A DNA stretch of 64,000 bases from Amphiscolops sp. MND2022. Taxonomy: Eukaryota. The stretch is taken from NCBI GenBank assembly GCA_964187785.1, contig OZ076409.1:75890001-75954000 (forward strand), written 5' to 3'. The position numbers were made by a program, and so were the translations under genes. Below the pieces are notes generated by a model. That model was not told the origin of the DNA and searched no databases. It saw only the letters and a list, made by a program, of their open reading frames with translations. This document shows positions 3,785-64,000 of the stretch, piece after piece (the stretch's first letter is position 1; each line of letters opens with the position of its first letter).

Positions 3785-3896
3785 AACGTCAACGCCACAT
3801 ACTGTTACCAACGCCCACCGTCCGTAGGCATGCCGAGGCATGCCTTTCGACGACGTATGCCAAATACCATAAAACCGACGCGCACTCTCCCGCTAG
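3785..3896 (+). other. Conserved 3' terminus module (CAACGCC x2, hairpin, 45-50 nt spacer, CTAG); 47 copies in window
   Basis: AACGTCAACGCC..CAACGCCCACCGTCCGT-[A/G]GGCATGCC-GA-GGCATGCC[T/C]-TTCGACGAC..CTAG, present before every junction. Confidence 0.9.
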
Positions 3897-20900: not shown

Positions 20901-21828
20901 CAATCGGACTTAAACTCGGGGAGATATAGCGTTTTTCCGGAGCGGGGGGGTTTCATTTTTCTAACGGTCCAGCTTATCTTTGCCATTTTTTCGAAAATGC
21001 ACTCGCCTAAAGGCCTCCCCTGGCCGGTTTTACTCCCAAAAAAACCATTTGGCCCTAAATACGGAGTTTCAGCGTTCTAGCATTCCGGGGCGAAAAGTTG
21101 TGGTACTTAGTAAATTTCAAAAATTTTCAAAAATTTTTTTTTCGTTATTTGGGCCCCCAAAGTGGGGGAAAAGACCCCCCAACCAGTAATTTGAGTGAAT
21201 TCATGTGGAAAGGCCATGTTTAGCGGCGAAAAATGCTTTTTAGATCGTCTTTTTATTTTAACCTGTTGTTGACTTATGTTGTTTTGAAGGTGATGTTTGG
21301 ATGTGTGAAGCATGTGAAAAGGTAATTTTTTGTGTCTTTATCTCTTCTAAAAGCCATTGAGATGCAATCTGTTTTGCTCAAAACGTAATTCAATGCAATT
21401 TGGCAGTCAATGAACACAATTTGGTGTCTTTTGTTATATTTTTCTGTTGATATAATAAAAAATTTTGTGTCTTTATTAATTTTTTTTAAATAAAATAACT
21501 TGAAACAGTTGAGTACATTCCATCCCCCCCTTCCGGGGGAGATGGAAATGTACTCGCTAAAAGCCGCGAACAAGAGCCCATACCTTCCTGCGCTACGCAG
21601 TATAAAGATTGCATGTTGGTTCCGACTTTTTGGTAGTGTTATATCTTGGTAATTTGACTGAATATGGAGAAAAATCAGCAAGTGCTCTTTTATAGCAAAT
21701 TGCTGACAACGACAATTTTTTTATATCAACGCCCCCATATTTATCAACGCCCCCCGTCCGTGGGCATGCCGAGGTATGCCCTTCGACGACGTATACCAAG
21801 ATATACTCCCGAGCGCGGTAGCCGCTAG

Positions 21829-30800: not shown

Positions 30801-33800
30801 GATGCTCACCGAAACGTGCAGAATTCTACGAGATCTCATAGTTTGAGCCATACGATTTTTCTGAAATTTGGCATGTGGCCTGGAATTGGTGAGTAGGTAA
30901 AACGTGTAGGAGGTGATTTTTCCCAAATTCCACTGTGAGACGAGATATGGGCAAATAACGGTCCCAAAAATGGCAAAAATGCACTTTTTTCAAGTTTGTC
31001 AGCCCATATCTCATTTCCAGGTGCCCGGAGCGGGACGCGTTAAGCTGATTATAAACTCTAGGGTGTTGAGGCTGTACGGGGAAGTCAGGCCCGTTCCGAT
31101 CGGACTTGTAGTCTTGGAGAAATAACGGTATTTTTGGGGAACCTTTTCTAACGGTCCAGCTTATCTTTGCCATTTTTTCGAAAATGTACTCGCCTAAAGG
31201 CCTCCCCCTGGCCGAATTTACTCCCAGCAAAACCATTTGGCCCTAAATACGGAGTTTCAGCGTTCCAGCATTCCCGGGCGAAAAGTTGTGAGACTTGGAA
31301 AATTTTCAAAAATTTTCAAAATTTTTTTTTTCGTTTTCCGAGTCCCCAATGAAGGGGAAACGACCCCCCAACCAGTATTTTGAGCGAATTCATGTGGAAA
31401 GCCCTTGTTTTGACGAGAAAAATACCGTTTAGAACATCTTTTTATCTTGACTCAACGTTGACTTATGACGTTTTGAATGTGATGTAAGGATGTAGGAGGC
31501 ATGTGATAAGTTGATGTTTTGAGTCTTTATCTCATATGAAAGCGGTTGAGATGCAAGCTGTCCTGCTCAAAACGTCTTTCGTTGTAATTTTCCAGTGCAC
31601 CAATACCCTTTGGTGTCATATAAACATACTTTTTGTCGATATATTAACAATTTTAATGTATTTATTCCAATTTTTATTATCTTATAACTCAAAACAGTTG
31701 AGTACATTTCATCTCCCTTTCGGGGGAGATGAGAATGTACTCGCTAAAGACCTAGCGCCATGACCAAAAGTTTGAAACCCACGTTTTTTATCTTCTTACA
31801 GACTTGTTTTTGTATTTTTTCGGAATTTTATAAAAATTAATATACTTGAAATACATTACTTGACTTTACTACTACAACCCACCTCCAACGACAACGCCCC
31901 CCTGCTTGCATCAACGCCCACCGTCCGTGGGCATGCCGAGGCATGCCTTTCGACGACGTATGCCAAATGCCCAGTGCCACGCAGTCATTATCGCTAGGTG
32001 GCCGTGTCTTTTCGACGTGCTTTTGCATTGAGGAGTGGGTAGGGCCCCGCGACGACCTAGAAGAATTGGATGCTCACCGAAACGTGCAGAATTCTACGAG
32101 ATCTCATAGTTTGAGCCATACGATTTTTCTGAAATTTGGCATGTGGCCTGGAATTGGTGAGTAGGTAAAACGTGTAGAAGGTAATTTTTCCCAAATTCCA
32201 CTGTGAGAGGAGATATGGGCAAATAACGGACCCAAAAATGGCAAAAATGCACATTTTTCAAGTTTGTCAGCCAATATCTCATTTCCAGGTGCCCGTAGCG
32301 TTCCGCACGTGGACGTCAATATTGCTCAGCGCTGTTAGAAGAGTGCGTGGACAAATTTTGGTTCAAATCGGACTAAAACTTGGCGAGAAATTAACGGTTT
32401 TTTGGGCGTTTCCGGGGTAAATTTTTTAACGGTCCAGCTTATCTTTGCCATTTTTTCGAAAATGTACATGCCTAAAGGCCTCCCCCTGGCCGAATTTACT
32501 CCCAGCAAACCCATTTGGCCCTAAATACGGAGTTTCAGCGTTCCAGCATTCCGGGGCGGAAAGTTGTGGGACTTGGAAAAATTTCAAAATTTTTTCAAAA
32601 ATTTTTTTTCCCGTTTTCCGGGCCCCCAATGAAGGGGAACGACCCCCCAACCAGTATTTTGAGTGAATTCATGTGGAACGCCCATGTTTGGAGGAGAAAA
32701 ATGCCGTTTAGCACATCTTTTTATCTTAACTTGACATTGACTTATGACGTTTTGAATGTGATGTTAGGATATATGAAGCATGTTAAAAGTTGAAGTTTTG
32801 AGTCTTTATCTCATCGGAAAACCATTGAGATACAAGCAGTTTTGCTAAAAACGATTTTCATTGTAGGTTAGCAGAGTATTAGTACACTTTGATGTCATTT
32901 GAGTATTTTTTTCTTCTATATAATAACTGTTTTTATGTATTTATTCCAATTTATCTCATCTTTTAACATCAAGCAGTTGAGTACATTTCATCTCCCTTTC
33001 GGGGGAGATGAGAATGTACTCGCTAAAAACCTAATGCTATGGCGCCAATGTTTGGATGGGAAGTTTTCTATGCTTTGAAAAAAGTTATTTTTAATTACTT
33101 GATTTTGTAAAACAATAATTAACATGAAGTACATTACTTGCTCCTACTACTACCACCATACATCTCTAACGTCAACGCCCCCTGCTTGCATCAACGCCCC
33201 ATCGTCCGTGGGCATGCCGAGGCATGCCCTTCGACGACGTATGCCAAATGCCCAGTGCCACGCAGTCTTTCCCCGCTAGGTGGCCGTGTCTTTTCGACGT
33301 GCTTTTGCATTGAGGAGTGGGTAGGGCCCCGCGACGACCTAGAAGAATTGGATGCTCACCGAAACGTGCAGAATTCTACGAGATCTCATAGTTTGAGCCA
33401 TACGATTTTTCTGAAATTTGGCATGTGGCCTGGAATTGGTGAGTAGGTAAAACGTGTAGGAGGTGATTTTTCCCAAATTCCACTGTGAGACGAGATATGG
33501 GCAAATAACGGTCCCAAAAATGGCAAAAATGCACTTTTTTCAACTTTGTCAGCCCATATCTCGTTCCCAGGTGCCCGGAGCGGGACGCGTTAAGCTGATT
33601 ATAAACTCTAGGGTGTTGAGGCTGTACGGGGAAGTCAGGCCCGTTCCGATCGGACTTGTAGTCTTGGAGAAATAACGGTATTTTTGGGGAACCTTTTCTA
33701 ACGGTCCAGCTTATCTTTGCCATTTTTTCGAAAATGTACTCGCCTAAAGGCCTCCCCCTGGCCGAATTTACTCCCAGCAAAACCATTTGGCCCTAAATAC

Positions 33801-35815
33801 GGAGTTTCAGCGTTCCAGCATTCCCGGGCGAAAAGTTGTGGGACTTGGAAAATTTTCAAAAATTTTCAAAATTTTTTTTTCGTTTTCCGGGCCCCCAATG
33901 AAGGGGAAACGACCCCCCAACCAGTATTTTGAGTGAATTCATGTGGAAAGCCCTTGTTTTGACGAGAAAAATACCGTTTAGAACATCTTTTTATCTTGAC
34001 TCAACGTTGACTTATGACGTTTTGAATGTGATGTAAGGATGTAGGAGGCATGTGATAAGTTGATGTTTTGAGTCTTTATCTCATATGAAAGCGGTTGAGA
34101 TGCAAGCTGTCCTGCTCAAAACGTCTTTCGTTGTAATTTTCCAGTGCACCAATACCCTTTGGTGTCATATAAACATACTTTTTGTCGATATATTAACAAT
34201 TTTAATGTATTTATTCCAATTTTTATTATCTTATAACTCAAAACAGTTGAGTACATTTCATCTCCCTTTGGGGGGAGATGAGAATGTACTCGCTAAAGAC
34301 CTAGCGCCATGACCAAAAGTTTGAAACCCACGTTTTTTATCTTCTTACAGACTTGTTTTTGTATTTTTTCGGAATTTTTTAAAAATTAATATACTTGAAA
34401 TACATTACTTGACTTTACTACTACAACCCACCTCCAACGACAACGCCCCCCTGCTTGCATCAACGCCCACCGTCCGTGGGCATGCCGAGGCATGCCCTTC
34501 GACGACGTATGCCAAATGCCCAGTGCCACGCAGTCATTATCGCTAGGTGGCCGTGTCTTTTCGACGTGCTTTTGCATCGAGGAGTGGGTAGGGCCCCGCG
34601 ACGACCTAGAAGAATTGGATGCTCACCGAAACGTGCAGAATTCTACGAGATCTCATAGTTTGAGCCATACGATTTTGCTGAAATTTGGCATGTGGCCTGG
34701 AATTGGTGAGTAGGTAAAACGTGTAGAAGGTAATTTTTCCCAAATTTCACTGTGAGACGAGATATGGGCAAATAACGGTCCCAAAAATGGCAAAAATGCA
34801 CTTTTTTCAAGTTTGTCAGCCCATATCTCGTTCCCAGGTGCCCGGAGCGGGACGCGTTAAGCTGATTATAAACTCTAGGGTGTTGAGGCTGTACGGGGAA
34901 GTCAGGCCCGTTCCGATCGGACTTGTAGTCTTGGAGAAATAACGGTATTTTTGGGGAACCTTTTCTAACGGTCCAGCTTATCTTTGCCATTTTTTCGAAA
35001 ATGTACTCGCCTAAAGGCCTTCCCCTGGCCGAATTTACTCCCAGCAAAACCATTTGGCCCTAAATACGGAGTTTCAGCGTTCCAGCATTCCCGGGCGAAA
35101 AGCTGTGGGACTTGGAAAATTTTCAAAAATTTTCAAAAAATTTTTTTTTCGTTTTCCGGGCCCCCAATGAAGGGGAAACGACCCCCCAACCAGTATTTTG
35201 AGTGAATTCATGTGGAAAGCCCTTGTTTTGACGAGAAAAATACCGTTTAGAACATCTTTTTATCTTGAGTCAACGTTGACTTATGACGTTTTGAATGTGA
35301 TGTAAGGATGTAGGAGGCATGTGATAAGTTGATGTTTTGAGTCTTTATCTCATATGAAAGCGGTTGAGATGCAAGCTGTCCTGCTCAAAACGTCTTTCGT
35401 TGTAATTTTCCAGTGCACCAATACCCTTTGGTGTCATATAAACATACTTTTCGTCGATATATTAACAATTTTAATGTATTTATTCCCATTTTTATTATCT
35501 TATAACTCAAAACAGTTGAGTACATTTCATCTCCCTTTCGGGGGAGATGAGAATGTACTCGCTAAAGACCTAGCGCCATGACCAAAAGTTTGAAACCCAC
35601 GTTTTTTATCTTCTTACAGACTTGTTTTTGTATTTTTTCGGAATTTTTTAAAAATTAATATACTTGAAATACATTACTTGACTTTACTACTACAATCCAC
35701 CTCCAACGTCAACGCCCCCCTGCTTGCATCAACGCCCACCGTCCGTGGGCATGCCGAGGCATGCCCTTCGACGACGTATGCCAAATGCCCAGTGCCACGC
35801 AGTCATTATCGCTAG
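21829..35815 (+). repeat. Uninterrupted run of 11 subfamily-A units (including A2 and A3 variants)
   Basis: All start GTGGCCGTGTC; A2 variants at 25634-26914 and 31998-33279; A3 at 26915-28191. Confidence 0.9.
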
Positions 35816-37103
35816 GTGCCCGGATTTCTATTCATTAAAGTATGTTGCGCGTGTGGGTAGGGCCCCGTGGCGCGCTCTTGTGTCCCTGTTCTAAAATCTA
35901 TAATTTCCGGCAGCATTCTGAGCGATTTTCTAAACTATCCATACGATTCGGCTGAAATTTGGCACACGTACCCCCCTCGGCACGGTGAAGATGATTTCCT
36001 ACTGACGTTTTTCCCGCAAAATTTTTTTTGTTGTCCAAAATAACGGTTTTTGGGGTAAAATTTTGAACTTTTTTTAAATTTCATCTTATATCTCGCCACG
36101 GGTTTACGCTAGCGCTTCAAAACCCTGCTAAAGAAAGCTTGCAAACTGTCTCAGGAATGCGGTGTGAAATTTTCAGCTCAATCGGACTCAAACTCAGGGA
36201 GATATAGCGTTTTTCCGGAGCGGGGGGGTTTCATCTTTCTAACGGTCCAGCTTATCTTTGCCATTTTTTCGGAAATGCACTCGCCTAAAGGCCTCCCCTG
36301 GCCGGTTTTATTCCCAGGAAAACCATTTGGCCCTAAATACGGAGTTTCAGCGTTCCAGCATTCCCGGGCGAAAAGTTGTGGGACTTAGAAAAGTTCAAAA
36401 GTTTTCAAAAAAATTTTTTTCCGTTTTCCGCCCTCCCCCCCTAGGGGAAAAGACCCCCCAACCAGTAATTTGAGTGAATTCATGTGGAAAGGCCATGTTT
36501 AGAGGAGAAAAATACCGTTTAGATCGTCTTTTTATCTTTATTCGACGTTGACTTATGACGTTTTGAAGGTGATATTTGGAGGTGTGAAGCACGTGAAAAG
36601 TAAACGTTATGAGTATTTATCTGATCTGAAAGCCATTGAGATGCAACCTGTTTTGCTCAAAACGTAATTCATATCAGTTTGGTAGTCAATCAACACCCTT
36701 TGTTGTCATTTGACATCTTTTTTTGTTGATATAAGAAAAAATTTTGTGTATTTATTCATTTTTTTCTCATCAAATAACTTGAAACAGTTGAGTACATTCC
36801 ATCCCCCTTCACGGGGGAGATGAGAATGTACTCGCAAAAAGCCCCGAACTACGGCCCTTACCTTCCTGAGCTACGCAGTATAAAGATTGCATATTGGTTC
36901 CGACATTTTGATAGAGTTATATCTTGGTAATCTGTCTGGGTATGCAGAAAAACCAGCACGTGCTTTTTTATACCAAGTTGCTCACAACGACATTTATTTT
37001 ATATCAACGCCCCCATATTTATCAACGCCCCCCGTCCGTGGGCATGCCGAGGCATGCCCTTCGACGACGTATACCAAGATATACCCCAAGCGCGTTAGCC
37101 TAG
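35816..37103 (+). mobile_element. Non-autonomous unit, subfamily G (starts GTGCCCGGATTTCTATTCATTAAAG)
   Basis: Second copy at 49298-50586; B-like body. Confidence 0.75.
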
Positions 37104-38372
37104 GTGCCGGGATTACTATTCGATAAGGAATTTTGCGCGGTTGGGTAGGGCCCCGTGAGCGCGCCAGGGGATAGTGTTAGAACAACAAGGATTTGGGCAT
37201 CAGTTGGGAGCGATTTTCTAAACTATCCGTACGATTTTGCTGAAATTTGGCACGAAGCTTCCTTGGAACATTCTAAGAACAAATCCCTACTGGCGTTTTG
37301 CTGGGAAAAATCAAAAAGTTGGTCAAAAATGCGATTTTCCGACAAAATTTTGGGGTAAAATTTTTTTGAAACGTTATATCTCGCCACAGGGTCACGCTAG
37401 CGCCTCGCAACCTATGATCGTGTTTTGTTGGGCGTTGTCTGTAGAACACGTATGCCAAATTTGGTGGCGATCGGACTTAAACTCAGGGAGATATAGCGAT
37501 TTTTTAGGTGCATTTTTTGACATTTTTTGCATTTGCCGATTTATCTCTGCCGTTTTTGCCCAAAATTTTTTTGAGACACTCTCCTAAAGACCTCCCCTGG
37601 CCGGTTTACCTCCCAGAAAAACCATTTGGCCCTAAATACGAAGTTTCAGCGTTCTAGCATTCCCGGGCAAAAAGTTGTGGGACTTAGAATAGTTTTTATG
37701 GTAACGCAAAATGTGTAAAGTCAACTTCAGGCCTCCCAAAGTCAAAGAACTTCCACACAACTAGGATTGCAAGTGGGTGCATGTGGAAAGTACTCGGATA
37801 GACGAGAAAAATGAGCTATAGAACGACTCTGTAGCTTAACCTGACGTTGACTTATGACAATTTTAGTGTGAGCTTGCTATTTGGTGTAAAAATTCAAATG
37901 ATGAAAATCGAAGCTAAGTCTCATCCAAAACTCATCGGAATACGTTCAATGCACCCCAAAGCGGATTAATTCGAGATGTTTAGTGCAGCAACACCATTCA
38001 AGACCATTTGACCCATTTTTATAAGTTTTGACAACGTATTATTCATACGAGAGCACGAAACAGTTGAGTACATTCCATCTCCCTTTCGGGGGAGATGAGA
38101 ATGTACTCGCTAAAGTCCAGGTACTACAGCCCATATTTGCTTTTATGCGACGCTCTTATGCTAGTGCGCATACTTTTTAATCGTTTAACTGAATTTTCTT
38201 CTGTCTGCACTTTGACTTTGACTTGACATATAGTGAACGTTTTGTCTTACAACTTACAAATGAGTAACGTCAACGCCCCATCCTTGCATCAACGCCCACC
38301 GTCCGTGGGCATGCCGAGGCATGCCCTTCGACGACGTATGCCAAGATATATCCCAAGCGCGGTAGCAGCTAG
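37104..38372 (+). mobile_element. Non-autonomous unit, subfamily F, copy 2
   Basis: Same length as 16709-17977 and identical ORF-track translations. Confidence 0.75.
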
Positions 38373-40946
38373 GTGCCGGGATTTCTATTCGATAAAGTAT
38401 GTGGCGCGTGTGGGTAGGGTCCCTGGCGCGCTCTTGGGTATGGTGTTCACCAGCTAGGAAATAGGGGTCGATTTTTCGGGATCTCCTAAACTAGCCACAC
38501 GATTTGGCTGAAATTTGGCACACGTACTCCCCTCGGCACGGTGAAGATGATTTCCTACTGACGTTTTTCCCGCAAAATTTTTTTTGTTGTCCAAAATAAC
38601 GGTTTTTGGGGTAAAATTTTGAATTTTTTTTAAATTTCATCTTATATCTCGCCACGATTTTACGCTAGCGCTTCAAAACCCTGCTAAAGAAAGTTTGCAA
38701 ACTGTCTCAGGAATGCGGTGTGAAATTTTCAGCTCAATCGGACTTAAACTCGGGGAGATATAGCGTTTTTCCGGAGCGGGGGGGTTTCATTTTTCTAACG
38801 GTCCAGCTTATCTTAGCCATTTTTTCGAAAATGTACTCGCCTAAAGACCTCCCCTGGCCGGTTTTATTCCCAGCAAAACCATTTGGCCCTAAATACGGAG
38901 TTTCAGCGTTCCAGCATTCCCGGGCGAAAAGTTGTGGGACTTAGAAAATTTCAAAAATTTTCAAAATTTTTTTTTCCGTTTTCCGCCCTCCCCCCCTAGG
39001 GGAAAAGACCCCCCAACCAGTAATTTGAGTGAATTCATGTGGAAAGGCCATGTTTAGAGGAGAAAAATCCCGTTTAAATCGTCTTTTTATCTTTATTCAA
39101 CGTTGACTTATGACGTTTTGAAGGTGATGTTTGGAGGTGTGAAGCACATGAAAAGTAAAGGTTATGAGTATTTATCTGATCTTAAAGCCATTGAGATGCA
39201 ACCTGTTTTGCTCAAAACGTAATTCATATCAGTTTGGTAGTCAATCAACATCCTTTGTTGTCATTTGACATCTTTTTTTGTTGATATAAGAAAAAATTTC
39301 GTGTATTTATTCATTTTTTTCTCATCAAATAACTTGAAACAGTTGAGTACATTCCATCCCCCCTTCACGGGGGAGATGAGAATGTACTCGCAAAAAGCCC
39401 CGAACTACGGCCCTTACCTTCCTGAGCTACGCAGTATAAAGTTTGCATATTGGTTCCGACATTTTGGTAGAGTTATATCTTGGTAATCTGTCTGGGTATG
39501 CAGAAAAACCAGCACGTGCTTTTTTATACCAAGTTGCTCACAACGACATTTATTTTATATCAACGCCCCCATATTTATCAACGCCCCCCGTCCGTGGGCA
39601 TGCCGAGGCATGCCCTTCGACGACGTATACCAAGATATGTTCGAGCGCGTTAGCCTAGGTGCCGGGATTTCCATTCGATAAGGAATTCTGCGCGTGTGGG
39701 TAGGGCCCCTGGCGCGCTCCTGTGTTTTCGGTTTTCCTACTCCTAAATAGACCCCCTAAATTCCGGGATCTCCTAAACTATCCATACGATTTGGCTGAAA
39801 TTTGGCACACGTACCCCCCTCGGCACGGTGAAGATGATTTCCTACTGACGTTTTTCCCGCTAAACATTTTTTGTTGACCAAAATAACGGTTTTTGGGGTA
39901 AAATTTTCAACTTTTTTTAAATTTCATCTTATATCTCGCCACGGGTGCTCGCTAGCGCTTCCAAACCTTGCTGACGAAAGTTTGCAAACTGTCTCAGGAA
40001 GGCTGTGTGAAAATTTCAGCTCAATCGGACTCAAACTCGAGGAGATATAGCGTTTTTCCGGAGCGGGGGGGTTTCATTTTTCTAACGGTCCAGCTTATCT
40101 TTGCCATTTTTTCGAAAATGCACTCGCCTAAAGGCCTCCCCTGGCCGGTTTTATTCCCAGCAAAACCATTTGGCCCTAAATACGGAGTTTCAGCGTTCCA
40201 GCATTCTCGGGCGAAAAGTTGTGGGACTTAGAAAATTTCAAAAATTTTCAAAAAATTTTTTTTTCGTTATTTGGGCCCCCAAAGTGGGGGAAAAGATCCC
40301 CCAACCAGTAATTCAAGTGAATGCATGTGGAAAGGCCATGTTTAGAGGAGAAAAATGCCGTTTAGAACGTCTTTTTATCTTGGCTCAACGTTGACTTATG
40401 ACGTTTTGAAGGTGATGTTTGGAGGTGTAAAGCAAGTGAATAGTAAACGTTATGAGTATTTATCTGATCTGAAAGCCATTGAGATGCAATATGATTGCTC
40501 AAAACGTAATTCATTGCAGTTTGGCAATCAATCAACACCCTTTGTTGTCGTTTGACATACTTTTTTGTTGTTAAAATAAAAAATTTTGTGTATTTATTCA
40601 TTTTTTCTCATCAAATAACTTGGAACAGTTGAGTACATTCCATCCCCCCCTTCCGGGGGAGATGAGAATGTACTCGCAAAAAGCACCGAACTACGGCCCT
40701 TACCTTCCCGAGCTACGCAGTATAAGGATTACATATTGGTTCCGACATTTTCATAGAGTTATATCTTGGTAATCTGTCTGGATATGCCGAAAAATCAGCA
40801 CGTGCCTTTTAATACCAAGTTGCTCACAACGACAATTATTTTATATCAACGCCCCCATATTTATCAACGCCCCCCGTCCGTGGGCATGCCGAGGCATGCC
40901 CTTCGACGACGTATACCAAGATATACATAAGCGCGGTAGCCGCTAG

Positions 40947-42917
40947 GTGCGGGGGGGTAACCCCAACAAATATATTGGAGGATTCGGGTAGGGTCCTGAA
41001 TCCGATTTTAACTCTAATAGCTATCGATAGGAAATCGTGCAAAAATTTCGGGATCTCGTGATCTAACCATAGGATTTTAAAGTTGGAGCGGCCCCCACCA
41101 GATTTTCCAAAGTTATTCGCCCCCCACCGGGTTCCAGCGTGATTGAAATATTTTGACGGGGTACACGGGCGACCGTTAGGGGTCATTTTGGGGGTAAAAT
41201 TTATATCCGGTCGCATAACTTTTTTCCTGTTGGTTTAAAACTTTGGGACCCTGCTAAAAGTTTCTTGACCGTGTTGCAGTGGCTCCGGAGGTCCAAACCA
41301 AATTTTTCTATCTTGAAGCTATCTCCAAGTACCCCCCCGCCCAAACCGTTATTTTTCCGGAAACGCAGGTTTTTGACCCGGAAGGAGTCGTCTGAGCGCG
41401 GGTTCGTTAGGTGATGTATTGGGGACGGCCTTGAGACGAAGCGGGGGACATGTAGTTTGCCGACCCCAATTTACCCCCCGGACGGGAAATGACCGTTATA
41501 TGAGCGGGAAAATTGCCCCCCTCCACGTTTAACCGCTATTTCCGGTGTGAAGGAGTGGGAGTAGCGCGTCGGGTGTCATATATCAAAAGTAGGTTTAGAC
41601 AAGGACCTATCGGAAACATGTGGTTTGGGACCCCCTGGACCAACCCGTTAGCGAGAAATGGCGCTTCCGCCTCCTTTTTTTACTGCTAAAACCGTAAAAT
41701 GGGCATTGAGGGGTAAATATCTCGTGAACGCGTGGAGCAATCGTGTCCTTCACTACTACAAGGTTTCATGCCCATCATATGGTGCCTTCAGGGGGGCAAA
41801 CAGATTTCCGCTATCTATCACCGTTACCGACTTGGCCCCCCAGCCTAACCGCTATGTTACCGGAAATGTCACTTTTTGAGCCCAAAGGGTCAGTCCGAGC
41901 GCGGCATCGTTAGGTAACTTATTGTAGTACTCAATGAGACGAGTTGGGGGATATAGTTTCAGTCACCCCCCGTTACCCCTTGTGACCGGAAATGACCGTT
42001 ATGTTGGTAAAATTGCGATTTTTGTACTTTTTGAAGGGCAATTAGGTGCGGAAGGAGTGGTAATAGGTGCTTGGACACTATATGAGGTAAGGGAGGACGT
42101 GAGGCGAGCATTCGGAAATAACCGTTATGTTGACCCCAAAGTCCCCCTGGTACCGTAAACGACCGGAAATGGTCAAATTTTGTGTCTATTGAGTACAAAT
42201 GTTTGGTGTTTTATGAATAAAGTACCTATTAGGTGTTTCGACGGTCTGCAGTAGTGAACATAGTCATGAAACCTTACGGGGGGTAACGGTATATAGCACC
42301 GGAAGTCCAAACCGTTGGAGACAGGATAGGTTTTTTTGGTTTTAAAATGTCTTTCGGCGTACTTTTGTTGACTATTATGGACTATTTTTAAAAATTAAAG
42401 TTTTTCCATATAGTTTCAGAGACTCCGAAACCTCAACCAACATAACCGTTACCTTATGATAGCCTTTCAAGTTGGCCTGGTGTCAACTTGGAGGGGCTAT
42501 CCTTCAAAAATCGTTAATCAAGTGTGTTTTTGGGTATGTTTGTATCAATTTAGAATCAATTAGAGCTTCAAGAAAAGTTTGCCAACGACAAAAACTATGT
42601 CGTGATGATTCCGTTATTAGAATGATGGTTAACAAAATGTTGATAAAGTTAATTTTTTACATTTCAAATGTGTCCTAAAAGCCAGAAAACCTCTTTACCA
42701 AAAAAATGGTATTGATTGAATTGTATATAACAGGTAATAAAAGTTCAAATTGATTATTACGTTTCATTATTCAAGCTAAAACTTCATAACAAAGTTTAAT
42801 TAACGTCAACGCCACACACTTTACATCAACGCCCACCGTCTGTGGGCATGCCGAGGCATGCCCTTCGACGACGTTTACCAAATACATACCTAACGACGCC
42901 CGTACATCCCGGGCTAG
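40947..42917 (+). mobile_element. Unique 1971-bp non-autonomous unit (H) with family termini but an unrelated interior
   Basis: Starts GTGCGG after CTAG, has GGGTAGGGTCC at 40986, and ends with CAACGCC x2, the hairpin at 42844-42863 and CTAG at 42914-42917. Confidence 0.8.
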
Positions 42918-45900
42918 GTGGCCGTGTCTTTTCGACGTGCTTTTGCATTGAGGAGTGGGTAGGGCCCCGCGACGACCTAGAAGAATTGGATGCTCACCGA
43001 AACGTGCAGAATTCTACGAGATCTCATAGTTTGAGCCATACGATTTTGCTGAAATTTGGCATGTGGCCTGGAATTGGTGAGTAGGTAAAACGTGTAGGAG
43101 GTGATTTTTCCCAAATTCCACTGTGAGACGAGATATGGGCAAATAACGGTCCCAAAAATGGCAAAAATGCACTTTTTTCAACTTTGTCAGCCCATATCTC
43201 GTTCCCAGGTGCCCGGAGCGGGACGCGTTAAGCTGATTATAAACTCTAGGGTGTTGAGGCTGTACGGGGAAGTCAGGCCCGTTCCGATCGGACTTGTAGT
43301 CTTGGAGAAATAACGGTATTTTTGGGGAACCTTTTCTAACGGTCCAGCTTATCTTTGCCATTTTTTCGAAAATGTACTCGCCTAAAGGCCTCCCCCTGGC
43401 CGAATTTACTCCCAGCAAAACCATTTGGCCCTAAATACGGAGTTTCAGCGTTCCAGCATTCCCGGGCGAAAAGTTGTGGGACTTGGAGAATTTTCAAAAA
43501 TTTTCAAAAATTTTTTTTTTCGTTTTCCGGGCCCCCAATGAAGGGGAAACGACCCCCCAACCAGTATTTTGAGTGAATTCATGTGGAAAGCCCTTGTTTT
43601 GACGAGAAATGTACCGTTTAGAACATCTTTTTATCTTGACTCAACGTTGACTTATGACGTTTTGAATGTGATGTAAGGATGTAGGAGGCATGTGATAAGT
43701 TGATGTTTTGAGTCTTTATCTCATATGAAAGCGGTTGAGATGCAAGCTGTCCTGCTCAAAACGTCTTTCGTTGTAATTTTCCAGTGCACCAATACCCTTT
43801 GGTGTCATATAAACATACTTTTCGTCGATATATTAACAATTTTAATGTATTTATTCCAATTTTTATTATCTTTTAACTCAAAACAGTTGAGTACATTTCA
43901 TCTCCCTTTCGGGGGAGATGAGAATGTACTCGCTAAAGACCTAGCGCCATGACCAAAAGTTTGAAACCCACGTTTTTTATCTTCTTACAGACTTGTTTTT
44001 GTATTTTTTCGGAATTTTTTAAAAATTAATATACTTGAAATACATTACTTGACTTTACTACTACAATCCACCTCCAACGTCAACGCCCCCTTGCTTGCAT
44101 CAACGCCCACCGTCCGTGGGCATGCCGAGGCATGCCCTTCGACGACGTATGCCAAATGCCCAGTGCCACGCAGTCATTATCGCTAGGTGGCCGTGTCTTT
44201 TCGACGTGCTTTTGCATCGAGGAGTGGGTAGGGCCCCGCGACGACCTAGAAGAATTGGATGCTCACCGAAACGTGCAGAATTCTACGAGATCTCATAGTT
44301 TGAGCCATACGATTTTTCTGAAATTTGGCATGTGGCCTGGAATTGGTGAGTAGGTAAAACGTGTAGGAGGTGATTTTTCCCAAATTCCACTGTGAGACGA
44401 GATATGGGCAAATAACGGTCCCAAAAATGGCAAAAATGCACTTTTTTCAACTTTGTCAGCCCATATCTCGTTCCCAGGTGCCCGGAGCGGGACGCGTTAA
44501 GCTGATTATAAACTCTAGGGTGTTGAGGCTGTACGGGGAAGTCAGGCCCGTTCCGATCGGACTTGTAGTCTTGGAGAAATAACGGTATTTTTGGGGAACC
44601 TTTTCTAACGGTCCAGCTTATCTTTGCCATTTTTTCGAAAATGTACTCGCCTAAAGGCCTCCCCCTGGCCGAATTTACTCCCAGCAAAACCATTTGGCCC
44701 TAAATACGGAGTTTCAGCGTTCCAGCATTCCCGGGCGAAAAGTTGTGGGACTTGGAAAATTTTCAAAAATTTTCAAAAAAATTTTTTTTCGTATTCCGGG
44801 CCCCCAATGAAGGGGAAACGACCCCCCAACCAGTATTTTGAGTGAATTCATGTGGAAAGCCCTTGTTTTGACGAGAAAAATACCGTTTAGAACATCTTTT
44901 TATCTTGACTCAACGTTGACTTATGACGTTTTGAATGTGATGTAAGGATGTAGGAGGCATGTGATAAGTTGATGTTTTGAGTCTTTATCTCATATGAAAG
45001 CGGTTGAGATGCAAGCTGTCCTGCTCAAAACGTCTTTCGTTGTAACTTTCCAGTGCACCAATACCCTTTGGTGTCATATAAACATACTTTTTGTCGATAT
45101 ATTAACAATTTTAATGTATTTATTCCAATTTTTATTATCTTATAACTCAAAACAGTTGAGTACATTTCATCTCCCTTTCGGGGGAGATGAGAATGTACTC
45201 GCTAAAGACCTAGCGCCATGACCAAAAATTTGAAACTCACGTTTTTTATCTTCTTACAGACTTGTTTTTGTATTTTTTCGGAATTTTTTAAAAATTAATA
45301 TACTTGAAATACATTACTTGACTTTACTACTACAACCCACCTCCAACGACAACGCCCCCCTGCTTGCATCAACGCCCACCGTCCGTGGGCATGCCGAGGC
45401 ATGCCCTTCGACGACGTATGCCAAATGCCCAGTGCCACGCAGTCATTATCGCTAGGTGGCCGTGTCTTTTCGACGTGCTTTTGCATTGAGGAGTGGGTAG
45501 GGCCCCGCGACGACCTAGAAGAATTGGATGCTCACCGAAACGTGCAGAATTCTACGAGATCTCATAGTTTGAGCCATACGATTTTTCTGAAATTTGGCAT
45601 GTGGCCTGGAATTGGTGAGTAGGTAAAACGTGTAGGAGGTAATTTTTCCCAAATTCCACTGTGAGAGGAGATATGGGCAAATAACGGACCCAAAAATGGC
45701 AAAAATGCACATTTTTCAACTTTGTCAGCCAATATCTCTTTTCCAGGTGCCCGTAGCGTTCCGCACGTGGACATCAATATTGCTCAGCGCTGTTGGAGGA
45801 GTGCGTGGACAAATTTTGGTTTAAATCGGACTTAAACTTGACGAGAAATTAACGGTTTTTTGGGCGTTTCCGGGGTAAATTTTTTAACGGTCCAGCTTAT

Positions 45901-48900
45901 CTTTGCCATTTTTTCGAAAATGTACATGCCTAAAGGCCTCCCCCTGGCCGAATTTACTCCCAGCAAACCCATTTGGCCCTAAATACGGAGTTTCAGCGTT
46001 CCAGCATTCCGGGGCGGAAAGTTGTGGGACTTGGAAAAATTTCAAAATTTTTTCAAAAATTTTTTTTCCCGTTTTCCGGGCCCCCAATGAAGGGGAACGA
46101 CCCCCCAACCAGTATTTTGAGTGAATTCATGTGGAACGCCCATGTTTGGAGGAGAAAAATGCCGTTTAGAACATCTTTTTATCTTAACTTGACATTGACT
46201 TATGACGTTTTGAATGTGATGTTAGGATATATGAAGCATGTTAAAAGTTGAAGTTTTGAGTCTTTATCTCATCGGAAAACCATTGAGATACAAGCAGTTT
46301 TGCTAAAAACGATTTTCATTGTAGGTTAGCAGAGTATTAGTACACTTTGATGTCATTTGAGTATTTTTTTCTTCTATATAATAACTGTTTTTATGTATTT
46401 ATTCCAATTTATCTCATCTTTTAACATCAAGCAGTTGAGTACATTTCATCTCCCTTTCGGGGGAGATGAGAATGTACTCGCTAAAAACCTAATGCTATGG
46501 CGCCAATGTTTGGATGGGAAGTTTTCTATGCTTTGAAAAAAGTTATTTTTAATTACTTGATTTTTTAAAACAATAATTAACATGAAGTACATTACTTGCT
46601 CCTACTACTACCACCATACATCTCTAACGTCAACGCCCCCTGCTTGCATCAACGCCCCATCGTCCGTGGGCATGCCGAGGCATGCCCTTCGACGACGTAT
46701 GCCAAATGCCCAGTGCCACGCAGTCTTTCCCCGCTAGGTGGCCGTGTCTTTTCGACGTGCTTTTGCATTGAGGAGTGGGTAGGGCCCCGCGACGACCTAG
46801 AAGAATTGGATGCTCACCGAAACGTGCAGAATTCTACGAGATCTCATAGTTTGAGCCATACGATTTTTCTGAAATTTGGCATGTGGCCTGGAATTGGTGA
46901 GTAGGTAAAACGTGTAGGAGGTGATTTTTCCCAAATTCCACTGTGAGACGAGATATGGGCAAATAACGGTCCCAAAAATGGCAAAAATGCACTTTTTTCA
47001 ACTTTGTCAGCCCATATCTCGTTCCCAGGTGCCCGGAGCGGGACGCGTTAAGCTGATTATAAACTCTAGGGTGTTGAGGCTGTACGGGGAAGTCAGGCCC
47101 GTTCCGATCGGACTTGTAGTCTTGGAGAAATAACGGTATTTTTGGGGAACCTTTTCTAACGGTCCAGCTTATCTTTGCCATTTTTTCGAAAATGTACTCG
47201 CCTAAAGGCCTCCCCCTGGCCGAATTTACTCCCAGCAAAACCATTTGGCCCTAAATACGGAGTTTCAGCGTTCCAGCATTCCCGGGCGAAAAGTTGTGGG
47301 ACTTGGAAAATTTTCAAAAATTTTCAAAAAAATTTTTTTCGTATTCCGGGCCCCCAATGAAGGGGAAACGACCCCCCAACCAGTATTTTGAGTGAATTCA
47401 TGTGGAAAGCCCTTGTTTTGACGAGAAAAATACCGTTTAGAACATCTTTTTATCTTGACTCAACGTTGACTTATGACGTTTTGAATGTGATGTAAGGATG
47501 TAGGAGGCATGTGATAAGTTGATGTTTTGAGTCTTTATCTCATATGAAAGCGGTTGAGATGCAAGCTGTCCTGCTCAAAACGTCTTTCGTTGTAACTTTC
47601 CAGTGCACCAATACCCTTTGGTGTCATATAAACATACTTTTTGTCGATATATTAACAATTTTAATGTATTTATTCCAATTTTTATTATCTTATAACTCAA
47701 AACAGTTGAGTACATTTCATCTCCCTTTCGGGGGAGATGAGAATGTACTCGCTAAAGACCTAGCGCCATGACCAAAAATTTGAAACTCACGTTTTTTATC
47801 TTCTTACAGACTTGTTTTTGTATTTTTTCGGAATTTTTTAAAAATTCATATACTTGAAATACATTACTTGACTTTACTACTACAACCCACCTCCAACGAC
47901 AACGCCCCCCTGCTTGCATCAACGCCCACCGTCCGTGGGCATGCCGAGGCATGCCCTTCGACGACGTATGCCAAATGCCCAGTGCCACGCAGTCATTATC
48001 GCTAGGTGCCGGGATTTCTATTCGATAAAGTATGTTGCGCGTGTGGGTAGGGTCCCTGGCGCGCTCTTGGGTATGGTGTTCACCAGCTAGGAAATAGGGG
48101 TCGATTTTTCGGGATCTCCTAAACTAGCCACACGATTTGGCTGAAATTTGGCACACGTACTCCCCTCGGCACGGTGAAGATGATTTCCTACTGACGTTTT
48201 TCCCGCAAAATTTTTTTTGTTGTCCAAAATAACGGTTTTCGGGGTAAAATTTTGAATTTTTTTTAAATTTCATCTTATATCTCGCCACGGGTTTACGCTA
48301 GCGCTTCAAAACCCTGCTAAAGAAAGCTTGCAAACTGTCTCAGGAATGCGGTGTGAAATTTTCAGCTCAATCGGACTCAAACTCGGGGAGATATAGCGTT
48401 TTTCCGGAGCGGGGGGGGTTTCATTTTTCTAACGGTCCAGCTTATCTTAGCCATTTTTTCGAAAATGTACTCGCCTAAAGACCTCCCCTGGCCGGTTTTA
48501 TTCCCAGCAAAACCATTTGGCCCTAAATACGGAGTTTCAGCGTTCCAGCATTCCCGGGCGAAAAGTTGTGGGACTTAGAAAAATTCAAAAATTTTCAAAA
48601 AAAAATTTTTTCCGTTATTTGGGCCCCCAAAGTGGGGGAAAAGACCCCCCAACCAGTAAAGCAAGTAAATGCATGTGGAAAGCCCTTGTTTAGAGGAGAA
48701 AAATGCCGTTTAGAACGTCTTTTTATCTTAGCTCAACGTTGACTTATGACGTTTTGAAGGTGATGTTTGGAGGTGTAAAGCACGAGAATAGTAAACGTTA
48801 TGAGTATTTATCTGATCTGAAAGCCATTGAGATGCAATATGGTTTGCTCAAAACGTAATGCATTGCAGTTTGGCAGTCAATCATCACCCTTTGTTGTCGT

Positions 48901-51900
48901 TTGACATACTTTTTTGTTGTTATAATAAAAAATTTTGTGTATTTATTCATTTTTTTCTCATCAAATTACTTGAAACAGTTGAGTACATTCCATCCCCCCC
49001 TTCCGGGGGAGATGAGAATGTACTCGCAAAAAGCCCCGAACTACGGCCCTTACCTTCCCGAGCTACGCAGTATAAGGATTACATATTGGTTCCGACATTT
49101 TCATAGAGTTATATCTTGGTAATCTGTCTGGATATGCACAAAAATCAGCACGTGCCTTTTAATACCAAGTTGCTCATAACGACAATTATTTTATATCAAC
49201 GCCCCCATATTTATTAACGCCCCCCGTCCGTGGGCATGCCGAGGCATGCCCTTCGACGACCCGCACCAAAATATACGTCGAGCGCGGTAGCAGCTAGGTG
49301 CCCGGATTTCTATTCATTAAAGTATGTTGCGCGTGTGGGTAGGGCCCCGTGGCGCGCTCTTGTGTCCCTGTTCTCATAACTGCAATTTCCGGCAGCATTC
49401 TGAGCGATTTTCTAAACTATCCATACGATTCGGCTGAAATTTGGCACACGTACCCCCCTCGGCACGGTGAAGATGATTTCCTACTGACGTTTTTCCCGCA
49501 AAATTTTTTTTGTTGTCCAAAATAACGGTTTTTGGGGTAAAATTTTGAATTTTTTTTAAATTTTATCTTATATCTCGCCACGGGTTTACGCTAGCGCTTC
49601 AAAACCCTGCTAAAGAAAGCTTGCAAACTGTCTCAGGAATGCTGTGTGAAATTTTCAGCTCAATCGGACTCAAACTCGGGGAGATATAGCGTTTTTCCGG
49701 AGCGGGGGGGTTTCATTTTTCTAACGGTCCAGCTTATCTTTGCCATTTTTTCGAAAATGCACTCGCCTAAAGGCCTCCCCTGGCCGGTTTTATTCCCAGC
49801 AAAACCATTTGGCCCTAAATACGGAGTTTCAGCGTTCCAGCATTCCCGGGCGAAAAGTTGTGGGACTTAGAAAAGTTCAAAAATTTTCAAAAAATTTTTT
49901 TTCCGTTTTCCGCCCTCCCCCCCTAGGGGAAAAGACCCCCCAACCAGTAATTTGAGTGAATTCATGTGGAAAGGCCATGTTTAGAGGAGAAAAATGCCGT
50001 TTAGAACGTCTTTTTATCTTGGCTCAACGTTGACTTATGACGTTTTGAAGGTGGTGTTTGGAGGTGTAAAGCACGCGAATAGTAAACGTTATGAGTATTT
50101 ATCTGATCTGAAAGCCATTGAGATGAATATGGTTTGCTCAAAACGTAATTCATGGCAGTTTGGCAATCAATCAACACCCTTTGTTGTCGTTTGACATACT
50201 TTTTTGTTGTTATAATAAAAAATTTTGTGTATTTATTCATTTTTTTCTCATCAAATAACTTGAAACAGTTGAGTACATTCCATCCCCCCCTTCACGGGGG
50301 AGATGAGAATGTACTCGCAAAAAGCACCGAACTACGGCCCTAACCTTCCCGAGCTACGCAGTATAAGGATTACATATTGGTTCCGACATTTTCATAGAGT
50401 TAAATCTTGGTAATCTGTCTGGATATGCAGAAAAACCAGCACGTGCTTTTTTATACCAAGTTGCTTACAACGACAATTATTTTATATCAACGCCCCCATA
50501 TTTATCAACGCCCACCGTCCGTGGGCATGCCGAGGCATGCCCTTCGACGACGCGCACCAAAATATTCCCCGAGCGCGTTAGCCTAGGTGCCGGTGTTTTT
50601 TTACACAATGGGGGAAGTTGCGCGGTTGGGGAGGGTCCCTGACGCGCTTCCGTGGTATCGGGTCTTTCAACCGATGAAAACGACATAAAAAATTGGGATC
50701 TCGTAAACTAGCCATACGATTTGGCTGAAATTTGGCACACGTACCCCCCTCGGCACGGTGAAGATGATTCCCTACTGACGTTTTGCTCGCTAAACATTTT
50801 TTGTTGACCAAAATAACGGTTTTTGGGGTAAAATTTTCAACTTTTTTTAAATTTCATCTTATATCTCGCCACGGGTACACGCTAGCGCTTCCAAACCTTG
50901 CTGACGAAAGTTTGCAAACTGTCTCAGGAATGCTGTGTGAAATTTTCAGCTCAATCGGACTTAAACTCGAGGAGATATAGCGTTTTTCCGGAGCGGGGGG
51001 GTTTCATTTTTCTAACGGTCCAGCATATCTTTGCAATTTTTTCGAAAATGTACTCGCCTAAAGGCCTCCCCTGGCCGGTTTTATTCCCAGCAAAACCATT
51101 TTGCCCTAAATACGGAGTTTCAGCGTTCCAGCATTTCCGGGCGAAAAGTTGTGGGACTTAGAAAATTTCAAAAATTTTCAAAAATTTTTTTTTCGTCATT
51201 TGGGCCCCCAAAGTGGGGGAAAAGACCCCCCAACCAGTAAAGCAAGTAAATGCATGTGCAAAGCCCTTGTTTAGGGGAGAAAAATGCCGTTTAGAACGTC
51301 TTTTTATCTTGGCTCAACGTTGACTTATGACGTTTTGAAGGTGATGTTTGGAGGTGTGAAGCACGTGAATAGTAAACGTTATGAGTATTTATCTGATCCG
51401 AAAGCCATTGAGATGCAATATGGTTTGCTCAAAACGTAATTCATTGCAGTTTGGCAATCAATCAACACCCTTTGTTGTCGTTTGACATATTTTTTTGTTG
51501 TTATAATAAAAAATTTTGTGTATTTATTCATTTTTTTCTCATCAAATAACTTGAAACAGTTGAGTACATTCCATCGCCCCCTTCCGGGGGAGATGAGAAT
51601 GTACTCGCAAAAAGCACCGAACTACGGCCCTTACCTTCCCGAGCTACGCAGTATAAGGATTACATATTGGTTCCGACATTTTCATAGAGTTATATCTTGG
51701 TAATCTGTCTGGATATGCAGAAAAATCAGCACGTGCCTTTTAATACCAAGTTGCTTACAACGACAATTATTTTATATCAACGCCCCCATATTTGTCAACG
51801 CCCCCCGTCCGAGGGCATGCCGAGGCATGCCCTTCGACGACGTGTACCAAGATATACCTTGAGCGCGTTAAACTAGGTGCCGGGATTTCTATTCGATAAA

Positions 51901-54900
51901 GTATGTGGCGCGCCTTGGGTAGGGTCCCTTGCGCGCTTTTGGGTATGGTGTTCACCAGCTAGGAAATAGGGGTCGATTTTTCGGGATCTCCTAAACTAGC
52001 CACACGATTTGGCTGAAATTTGGCACACGTACTCCCCTCGGCACGGTGAAGATGATTTCCTACTGACGTTTTTCCCGCAAAATTTTTTTTGTTGTCCAAA
52101 ATAACGGTTTTTGGGGTAAAATTTTGAATTTTTTTTAAATTTTATCTTATATCTCGCCACGGGTTTACGCTACCGCTTCAAAACCCTGCTAAAGAAAGCT
52201 TGCAAACTGTCTCTGGAATGCGGTGTGAAATTTTCAGCACAATCGGACTCAAACTCGGGGAGATATAGCGTTTTTCCGGAGCGGGGGGGTTTCATTTTTC
52301 TAACGGTCCAGCTTATCTTTGCCATTTTTTCGAAAATGCACTCGCCTAAAGGCCTCCCCTGGCCGGTTTTATTCCCAGCAAAACCATTTGGCCCTAAATA
52401 CGGAGTTTCAGCGTTCCAGCATTCCCGGGCGAAAAGTTGTGGGACTTAGAAAAATTCAAAAATTTTCAAAAAAAATTTTTTCCGTTATTTGGGCCCCCAA
52501 AGTGGGGGAAAAGACCCCCCAACCAGTGAGGCAAGTGAATGCATGTGCAAAGCCCTTGTTTAGAGGAGAAAAATGCCGTATAGAACGTCTTTTTATCTTG
52601 GCTCAACGTTGACTTATGACGTTTTGAAGGTGATGTTTGGAGGTGTAAAGCACGAGAATAGTAAACGTTATGAGTATTTATCTGATCTGAAAGCCATTGA
52701 GATGCAATATGGTTTGCTCAAAACGTAATTCATTGCAGTTTGGCAGTCAATAATCACCCTTTGTTGTCGTTTGACATACTTTTTTGTTGTTATAATAAAA
52801 AATTTTGTGTATTTATTCATTTTTTTCTCATCAAATAACTTGAAACAGTTGAGTACATTCCATCCCCCCCTTCCGGGGGAGATGAGAATGTACTCGCGAA
52901 AAGCCCCGAACTACGGCCCTTACCTTCCCGAGCTACGCAGTATAAGGATTACATATTGGTTCCGACATTTTCATAGAGTTAAATCTTGGTAATCTGTCTG
53001 GATATGCAGAAAAATCAGCACGTGCCTTTTAATACCAAGTTGCTTACAACGACAATTATTTTATATCAACGCCCCCATATTTATCAACGCCCCCCGTCCG
53101 TGGGCATGCCGAGGCATGCCCTTCGACGACGTATACCAAGATATGTTCGAGCGCGTTAGCCTAGGTGCCGGGATTTCCATTCGATAAGGAATTCTGCGCG
53201 TGTGGGTAGGGCCCCTGGCGCGCTCCTGTGTTTTCGGTTTTCCTACTCCTAAATAGACCCCCTGAATTCCGGGATCTCCTAAACTATCCATACGATTTGG
53301 CTGAAATTTGGCACACGTACCCCCCTCGGCACGGTGAAGATGATTTCCTACTGACGTTTTTCCCGCTAAACATTTTTTGTTGACCAAAATAACGGTTTTT
53401 GGGGTAAAATTTTGAACTTTTTTTAAATTTCATCTTATATCTCGCCACGGGTACACGCTAGCGCTTCCAAACCTTGCTGACGAAAGTTTGCAAACTGTCT
53501 CAGGAATGCTGTGTGAAATTTTCAGCTCAATCGGACTTAAACTCGAGGAGATATAGCGTTTTCCCGGAGCGGGGGGGTTTCAATTTTCTAACGGTCCAGC
53601 TTATCTTTGCCATTTTTTCGAAAATGCACTCGCCTAAAGGCCTCCCCTGGCCGGTTTTATTCCCAACAAAACCATTTGGCCCTAAATACGGAGTTTCAGC
53701 GTTCCAGCATTCCCGGGCGAAAAGTTGTGGGACTTAGAAAAGTTCAAAAATTTTCAAAAAAAATTTTTTCCGTTATTTGGGCCCTCAAAGTGGGGGAAAA
53801 GACCCCCCAACCAGTAAAGCAAGTGAATGCATGTGGAAAGCCCTTGTTTAGACGAGAAAAATGCCGTCTAGAACGTCTTTTTATCTTAACTTGACATTGA
53901 CTTTTGTCGTTTTGAAGGTGACCGTTAGATACGGAAAATTGATGTTTTGAGTATTTATCCCATCTGAAAGCCATTGAGATACAACATGTTTTGCTCAAAA
54001 CGTGTTTCATTGCAGTTTCGCTGTCCATTATCACCCTTTGGTGTCTTTTCACGTAATTTTCGTTTCTATAATAACAATTTTTTTGTGTATTTGTTCATTT
54101 TATTCTCATCAAATAACTTGAAACAGTTGAGTACATTCCATCTCCCTTCCCGGGGGAGATGAGAATGTACTCGCTAAAGGTCAGGAACTACGGTCTATAT
54201 CTTCCACAACACAAATGGGATTGCAAATGGTTTCAGTTTGTCGCAGAAAACTTCTTTTTGCCCTCTGTGACTCGACAAAATGAACGTTTCTTACTTACTT
54301 TGAAACTCAGCATACCACAACTCATCTCTAACGTCAGCGCCCCCCTACTTGCATCAACGCCCACCGTCCGTGGGCATGCCGAGGCATGCCCTTCGACGAC
54401 GTATACCAAGATATACCTGGAGCGCGGTAGCCGCTAGGTGCCGGGATTTCTATTCGATAAAGTATGTGGCGCGCCTTGGGTAGGGTCCCTTGCGCGCTTT
54501 TGGGTATGGTGTTCACCAGCTAGGAAATAGGGGTCGATTTTTCGGGATCTCCTAAACTAGCCACACGATTTGGCTGAAATTTGGCACACGTACTCCCCTC
54601 GGCACGGTGAAGATGATTTCCTACTGACGTTTTTCCCGCAAAATTTTTTTTGTTGTCCAAAATAACGGTTTTTGGGGTAAAATTTTGAATTTTTTTTAAA
54701 TTTTATCTTATATCTCGCCACGGGTTTACGCTACCGCTTCAAAACCCTGCTAAAGAAAGCTTGCAAACTGTCTCTGGAATGCGGTGTGAAATTTTCAGCA
54801 CAATCGGACTCAAACTCGGGGAGATATAGCGTTTTTCCGGAGCGGGGGGGTTTCATTTTTCTAACGGTCCAGCTTATCTTTGCCATTTTTTCGAAAATGC

Positions 54901-63900: not shown

Positions 63901-64000
63901 TTCCAGCATTCCCGGGCGAAAAGTTGTGGGACTTGGAAAATTTTCAAAAATTTTCAAAATTTTTTTTTTCGTTTTCCGGGCCCCCAATGAAGGGGAAACG

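Follow-up and report, generated by a model that had tools for sequence, protein, structure and literature searches.

A 1971-bp unit with a private interior in a Helitron-like array is probably an old, separate non-autonomous element

Results

Unit H, the one odd-sized member of a head-to-tail array of Helitron-like units, is probably a complete non-autonomous element from a subfamily that is old and distinct. H retains the cis signals (the 5' hairpin region, the 3' CAACGCC boxes, the 3' hairpin and CTAG) that would be read by a RepHel transposase whose gene lies at the array head, and its middle appears to have evolved independently, partly by internal duplication.

Layout of the array

In the 64-kb stretch of Amphiscolops sp. 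MND2022 DNA that was analyzed (the window), CTAGGTG occurs at 47 junctions and always on the + strand. These delimit 46 complete units, namely H and 45 ordinary units of 1267–1292 bp. A preliminary description of this DNA had placed a 1971-bp unit exactly between two junctions, and this placement holds, with H at 40947–42917 flanked by CTAGGTG on both sides (Table 1). The length of the ordinary units (3897–63367) is held within its narrow range despite lineage divergence of 33–42%.

Units abut one another directly at the 47 junctions and TIR tests gave chance-level results, so that the array units show neither a TSD nor full TIRs. No junction has TC inside it (0/47, all CTAGGTG), and the 5' TC start of HLE1 elements is thus absent. 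The window includes neither a solo copy nor an array start at which A/T insertion, as in HLE1, would be visible. A scan with the 3' hairpin pattern detected one metagenome contig, OBOP01004400.1 (hereafter L001), and nothing in viral contigs or in genome contigs; the head pattern of H and L001 was likewise found in no viral contig. L001 contains a CGAGGTG junction (877–890) between a core-bearing unit and an H-like unit of which 289 nt are available. The core common to both sources is therefore C-x-AGGTG, and CTAG is not invariant. This bears on the cut that had been drawn as CTAG/GTG: the array junctions agree with a cut somewhere inside CTAGGTG, but its exact point is an assumption and the L001 junction reads differently.

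The central core and the internal stem-loop of the other units had been reported as missing from H, and this was confirmed, the motifs being present in 45/45 ordinary units and absent from H. Fuzzy core and stem-loop scores in H equaled the shuffled null on both strands (0.23–0.47 of shuffles scored at or above them), compared with 379 and 171 in the distant L001 unit. A stem-loop look-alike at 42249 in H is weak and scores at null level. An inverted or decayed ordinary body was rejected as the source of the H interior because its scores fell inside shuffled ranges. The stem-loop itself is long (about -18 kcal/mol) and lies 298–318 nt from the unit end in all 45 ordinary units and in L001 (e.g. 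43887–43932); H and the 3' end of the autonomous element are without it.

Table 1. Coordinates of features in the window (all on the + strand).
Feature	Position	Strand	Remarks
RepHel transposase, C-terminal 469 aa (helicase end and GIY-YIG)	3..1412	+	469/469 identical to intact 2327-aa P0025 and P0032
Second ORF of autonomous element	1973..2950	+	no Pfam match; atlas neighbours POT1/CTC1/RPA-like at 0.90–0.92, recognition below threshold
3' terminal signal of autonomous element	3784..3896	+	joined straight to first array unit; ordinary-unit profile E=3.3e-32
Head-to-tail array of non-autonomous units	3897..64000	+	several lineages 33–42% apart in shuffled order; extends beyond window
CTAGGTG junction left of H, following a B/C-type unit	40943..40949	+	nick placed somewhere within the 7 bp
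Unit H, non-autonomous Helitron-like element, probable separate subfamily	40947..42917	+	CTAGGTG at 40943 and 42914
H stretch homologous to the L001 H-like unit (OBOP01004400.1, 884–1172)	40947..41230	+	score 370 vs maximum 159 in 200 shuffles; 186/269 aligned bases identical
5' hairpin, 9-bp stem, loop TAGGGT	40980..41003	+	position and loop same in ordinary units and L001; stem changes compensated
Second shared 5' block, GATCTCG..CTAACCATAGGATTTT	41052..41078	+	
Internal duplication, first copy	41249..41661	+	period about 503 bp; score 605 vs maximum 193 in 200 shuffles; 275/399 identical
Internal duplication, second copy	41751..42172	+	faint sub-period of about 167 bp
H-specific internal hairpin	42458..42501	+	distinct from ordinary stem-loop; -11.9 kcal/mol, z -3.1
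AT-rich zone	42507..42796	+	27% GC; precedes 3' signal; ordinary units also low-GC in 3' half
Shared 3' signal	42797..42872	+	two (T)CAACGCC boxes and hairpin GGGCATGCC-GA-GGCATGCCC with TTCGACGAC
H-specific 45-nt tail	42873..42917	+	terminates GCTAG
Right junction CTAGGTG, H to A-type unit	42914..42920	+	

Ends of unit H

Sharing of about 140 bp at the 5' end and about 115 bp at the 3' end had been claimed, and both regions were matched by profile. The ordinary-unit profile matched H at positions 38–153 (E=2.8e-6) and 1836–1938 (E=1.3e-29), and a heads-only profile matched the weaker 5' region at positions 36–152 (E=3.9e-9). The 5' limit did not stand, since homology to the other contig, outside the window, runs over about 284 nt; the part that had been called foreign therefore begins beyond 140 bp. 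The 5' elements common to H and the ordinary units are the GTG start, the hairpin with its TAGGGT loop, and a GATCTC..CTA.CCATA.GATTT block. At the other end, a 75-nt block of H matched 62–68 of 75–77 columns in seven ordinary types.

In the case of the 5' hairpin, seven sequences were compared and two-sided change was seen in 5/11 pairs. The cell count was reached by 9/500 shuffles and the covariation score by 45/500, which is a modest signal. Between H and L001, the TAGGGT loop is kept and three stem pairs are compensated. Hairpins are thus present at both termini, as in HLE2, with the 5' hairpin located about 33 nt inside the unit and not at its extreme end. The 3' hairpin of H is followed by CTAG, in agreement with the hairpin and CTRR of HLE1, at a spacing longer than canonical; L001 ends in CGAG.

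The head and the tail of H are both unique among the 46 units. The possibility that H is an ordinary unit with a replaced middle was rejected for this reason. Collinearity of H with ordinary heads past position 152 is a hint only: one motif agrees at 14/17 (243–259 in H versus 234–247 in B/G units), but the head profile has no match on H 140–330.

The 289 nt of the H-like unit in L001 matched H best (370), with nine ordinary types scoring 211–310. The unit-2 head of L001 scored 163 (positions 1–75) and 147 (positions 215–289) against H. For the same two segments, nine ordinary types did not exceed 102 and 73, and the maxima of 500 shuffles were 99 and 112. The H-specific parts of the 289 nt are the first 75 and last 74 bases; the middle third is nearer to ordinary B/G units (247–281) than to H (137).

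Interior of unit H

From about position 290 onward, H matched neither any ordinary unit nor the 3' part of the autonomous element. The two copies of its internal duplication are 69% identical (31% diverged). The z value of the H-specific hairpin is generous because this hairpin was chosen after a window scan. No Pfam match at the curated cut-off was obtained for any of 10 ORFs scanned (13 were listed), tblastn with RepHel proteins detected no RepHel-derived sequence in H or any other unit, TRF reported no perfect tandem repeat in H, and blastn of H against phages and plasmids gave no match. Coding cargo was rejected on the Pfam and tblastn results. An RNA gene or ribozyme unit was also rejected, as the four Rfam matches in 38000–46000 were all far below gathering scores and none lay within H. 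B- and E-type units (5165–10319) have an internal periodicity of about 345–352 bp, and this period and the one of about 503 bp in H are both near multiples of 167–175 bp.

H might alternatively be a chimera, formed when family ends acquired host DNA of unrelated origin through read-through or filler repair. The unmatched interior is what such a capture would leave, and Helitrons are known to capture flanking DNA (described in PMC4778049). Read-through, however, predicts a new 3' end, and H has the family 3' block; the H head is specific from base 4 and is common to another contig. The Pfam and tblastn results together with the 31%-diverged duplication point to an old native body. Capture is thus unlikely, and the foreign cargo proposed in the preliminary description finds no backing in the ten scanned ORFs, the decayed self-duplication or the roughly 284 nt that continue into the H-like unit of L001. 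Since the duplication is decayed and the first 284 nt or so continue into L001, an old sister subfamily fits better than a fresh capture.

The case named as refuting the earlier suggestion was an interior that is a separate element with TSDs, nested in a deleted ordinary unit. A candidate is the 8-bp repeat TAAAACTT at 41236 and 42777, which would place such an element in a mini-unit of about 430 bp with an H-type head. This exact 8-mer brackets a 1533-bp stretch and lies near both limits of detectable homology, but an equally good 8-mer occurs in 17–34% of shuffles of these AT-rich regions. The ends of the supposed insert match at 3/15 bases and so form no TIR, a poly(A) tail is present at neither end, and a wider TIR test gave p=0.87. 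The head and tail are moreover unlike those of any ordinary unit. With a chance-level 8-mer and no TIR-bounded insert, nesting is highly improbable.

H is present in one copy within the window.

The autonomous element at the array head

Positions 1–3896 of the window belong to an autonomous Helitron-like element, of which they form the 3' end; it encodes RepHel with a C-terminal GIY-YIG domain. This RepHel is the likely driver of the array. P0025 matched Helitron_like_N (E=4.9e-8) and PIF1 (E=1.3e-8), the RepHel combination of the Helitron-like superfamily. The intact 2327-aa RepHel proteins carry the HUH motif (RYEFQSTKGNLPHIH) and the two-tyrosine motif YIAKY; both kinds of motif occur in the family, and the HUH and Y2 residues are conserved in the alignment. 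The GIY-YIG domain was found in RepHel homologues, where its profile matches Slx1 structures (E=5e-8); the match in the window's own RepHel protein is weak (E=0.16).

A search with the Rep region returned 780 clusters at E up to 0.001. A large RepHel clade (P0001–P0275) comprises proteins of 2.2–3.0 kaa in which the HUH spacer is longer and an Slx1-like GIY-YIG domain lies at the C-terminus, and 36/43 of the listed proteins of at least 2100 aa matched its GIY-YIG profile. In the 90% cluster of the window's own RepHel, 11/13 members are full length. Among 145 listed relatives, none of 105 HUH motifs fitted Rep motif 2 as published (ExQxRG(S/L)(P/L)HxH, PMC4067079), and the spacer within the motif was 6 or 8 residues in 99/105. 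DUF6570 or AP endonuclease was found in 0/18 proteins at E 0.01, a threshold that distant versions could escape. At the level of motifs, the RepHel clade is apparently separate from HLE1 and HLE2. Scans with the RepHel alignment confirmed 0/40 candidate stretches in viral contigs and 0/33 in genome contigs.

The second ORF of the element may encode an OB-fold ssDNA-binding protein, a weak lead that comes from its atlas neighbours (Table 1). A short frame of Ala/Pro/Thr repeats follows it at 3160–3363 and may be a further exon.

The 3' end of the autonomous element has two CAACGCC boxes, a hairpin and CTAG, as in every unit. Its 3' block matched that of H at 67/77, in a comparison of 3' ends only, the 5' end of the element being outside the window. 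The 3.9 kb present in the window is without the core, and the stem-loop is absent at the 3' end; the best stem-loop-like score was 90 (1% of shuffles), from a gapped match inside the second ORF, and the last 600 nt scored 56. As this 3' signal is the same as that of the units and is joined to the first of them, the array is a non-autonomous run behind an autonomous element, and the junction is common to two unrelated bodies. The earlier suggestion that the ends alone suffice for array entry is supported, in that H and the autonomous element, with their unrelated bodies, both adjoin the junction without core or stem-loop.

Movement of units within the array

Heads and tails of the same unit are linked. 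Head a was paired with tail a in 22/22 units, head c with tail d in 2/2, and heads b/d with tails b/c/e in 21/21, H being unique at both ends. Adjusted mutual information was 0.70 between a tail and its own head and 0.17 between a tail and the next head. Base pairing of head with tail was rejected as the source of this linkage, since the most stable duplexes are not those that a head forms with its own tail. Homologous exchange in the common 3' hairpin would break the link; because tails track their own unit, the linkage speaks against such exchange.

None of 45 units is adjacent to its nearest relative. Eleven pairs of units are at most 0.7% divergent, and in six of these the identity extends 4–6 nt beyond the left edge of the unit and 3 nt beyond its right edge, which corresponds to CTAG and GTG. 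One of the six pairs involves the A unit that follows H: this unit, at 42918, has a 99.6% twin at 60812, and identity between the two ends 5 nt left of the junction. In the other 5/11 close pairs, the match continues past the junction on one or both sides, into neighbours that belong to one lineage. The pattern of close pairs fits the copying of single units into junctions together with some multi-unit events.

Neighbours of the same lineage are clustered (29/45 versus 17.6 expected, p=0.0003). B-type units (5165–55725) are mosaics that recombine, inside the B lineage, different types of head, core and pre-terminal segment, and units 3897 and 58263 have a distinct variant tract in common in the central region. 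The clustering, the matches beyond the junction and the B mosaics indicate that local amplification or recombination also acts. Units 51877–53164 and 54438–55725, two places apart with different neighbours, differ by zero substitutions, a sign of very recent copying. In the last 35 nt or so of B-type units (e.g. 40917–40946), variability among otherwise close units is far higher in a short segment some 20 nt from the end than in the body.

These same observations could be read as an array shuffled by host recombination (unequal exchange or gene conversion), or by some other site-specific recombinase that uses the 7-bp CTAGGTG core, with RepHel having only founded the units. Lineage clustering, the B mosaics, the tract common to 3897 and 58263, and matches that in some cases run 172–584 nt past junctions all favor it. 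Homologous exchange, however, would use the long near-identical 3' hairpin block by preference and would bind a tail to the next head, whereas tails follow their own unit and the breakpoints lie on 7 shared bases. As for a different recombinase, none was recognized in the coding part of the window, where RepHel is the sole enzyme recognized. Host recombination or another recombinase as the shuffling agent is therefore very unlikely.

Discussion

Comparison with described Helitrons

Canonical Helitrons (HLE1; Helraiser/Helibat1) resemble the array family in having a RepHel with HUH/Y2 and PIF1, a 3' hairpin followed by CTAG, no TSD, head-to-tail junctions, and termini that suffice to move cargo (as described in PMC4778049 and PMC5876387). 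They differ in several respects. Array units start with GTG (or TG) and HLE1 with TC, and the main hairpin ends 34–45 nt before the unit end in the array compared with about 11 in HLE1. The array family also has a 5' hairpin, a longer spacer in HUH motif 2 and a C-terminal GIY-YIG fusion. Finally, array units abut one another, whereas HLE1 elements sit in A/T sites.

Elements of HLE2 (Helitron2, Helentron/HINE, proto-Helentron, Fusarium FoHeli) share with the array family hairpins at both ends and W/Y-x-R before motif 2. Helentrons, like its RepHel, have an endonuclease fused at the C-terminus, and the proto-Helentron has a 3' CTAG and a 5' stem-loop. In contrast to HLE2, no asymmetric TIR was found in 9/9 array units tested (chance level, p 0.26–1.0), and the array family has no DUF6570/AP endonuclease (18/18 proteins), no G-S-P-H signature and no TT target. 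Unrelated interiors behind common ends, as in H, are described for two members of HLE2. FoHeliNA1 encloses an unrelated interior of 637 bp in 27 and 166 terminal bases that it shares with FoHeli1 (PMC5148889), and the oyster Cg_HINE group 2 also combines common ends with unrelated interiors (PMC7492417). Because such elements are already published, the idea that ends suffice is largely established Helitron behavior.

The HELIANO study describes unclassified elements as well as one Sphagnum HLE2 family that carries a GIY-YIG domain (PMC11417382). A third Helitron clade with targeted, oriented insertion is described from Paramecium (bioRxiv 2025.11.06.686955). Like the array family, it lies outside the HLE1 and HLE2 signatures, inserts in strict orientation and at apparent targets, keeps its ends around variable, repeat-rich interiors, and has ORF-less derivatives. 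Its targets are telomeric repeats, it has a CCAA end and 9–10 kb ORFs, and GIY-YIG is unmentioned in that account, whereas the apparent target here is the family's own junction; this comparison is one of descriptions and not of enzyme kinship.

Long head-to-tail runs of Helitron-derived units are also described, as tandem arrays, from plants, bats and Hydractinia (PMC5876387, PMC4067079, PMC11934779), and distantly related Helitrons that adjoin one another directly are noted in bat and maize (PMC4067079). In the accounts available, those arrays are ascribed to concatemers or local amplification. Here, by contrast, nearest relatives are adjacent in 0/45 cases, and lineages 33–42% apart alternate with intact ends. 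A description of the RepHel–GIY-YIG clade or of junction-targeted mixed Helitron arrays was not found in the literature covered, whose scope excluded Repbase and subscription journals. Judged from its sequence features, the array family fits neither described group, HLE1 nor HLE2.

In bacterial integron cassette arrays, and in recombination at relaxase/Rep origins, single-unit circles enter a polar array at a fixed joint that is read as ssDNA hairpins, with any interior. The array described here differs from integrons in having no tyrosine recombinase, cassette genes or promoter, and in its eukaryote-type transposon enzyme, so the likeness would be one of analogy and not of membership.

Proposed mechanism

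HUH proteins can recombine their own origins, as is known from work on plasmid Rep proteins and relaxases. In the array, RepHel would nick at a junction, one unit would be peeled off up to the next 3' signal, and RepHel would close the peeled unit into a circle and transfer the circle into another junction. If RepHel takes the junction as target, the circle and the array would exchange strands there. Since the chromosomal junction between two units is the same as the junction of a circle, any validly ended unit may enter, in fixed orientation and without target duplication. The core and the stem-loop would be features of ordinary units that are not required for entry. The GIY-YIG domain might cut branched intermediates, which is a guess based on the resemblance to Slx1. 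In Helraiser, the left end is described as essential, the 3' hairpin as the terminator, and precise head-to-tail circles as forming (PMC4778049); canonical Helitron terminal sequences also moved a puromycin cassette (PMC4778049).

A wider proposal is offered tentatively. A widespread, apparently unclassified Helitron clade, with RepHel and Slx1-like GIY-YIG, could possibly integrate single-unit circles specifically at the tail-to-head junctions of its kin. It would thereby build polar, integron-like eukaryotic arrays that accept any interior between a 5' signal of about 150 nt and a 3' signal of about 120 nt. H and the autonomous element would then be natural proof that interior and size are irrelevant.

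Significance

H alone is ordinary Helitron biology, with common ends and a private middle. Together with the autonomous element it amounts to a natural deletion experiment, in which the sequences dispensable for a place in the array can be seen and the cis signals are narrowed to two short ends. Less ordinary are an array in which near-identical units swap neighbours precisely at the junction and a RepHel whose HUH motif lies outside both published signatures. Helitron targeting and tandem arrays are usually attributed to loose A/T insertion and rolling-circle concatemers. The shuffling of single units precisely at junctions suggests instead an HUH transposase that is site-specific and targets its own family. 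If true, a third type would be added to the known Helitron ends, and the enzyme would be a candidate tool for placing arbitrary cargo, in fixed orientation, at a defined landing site.
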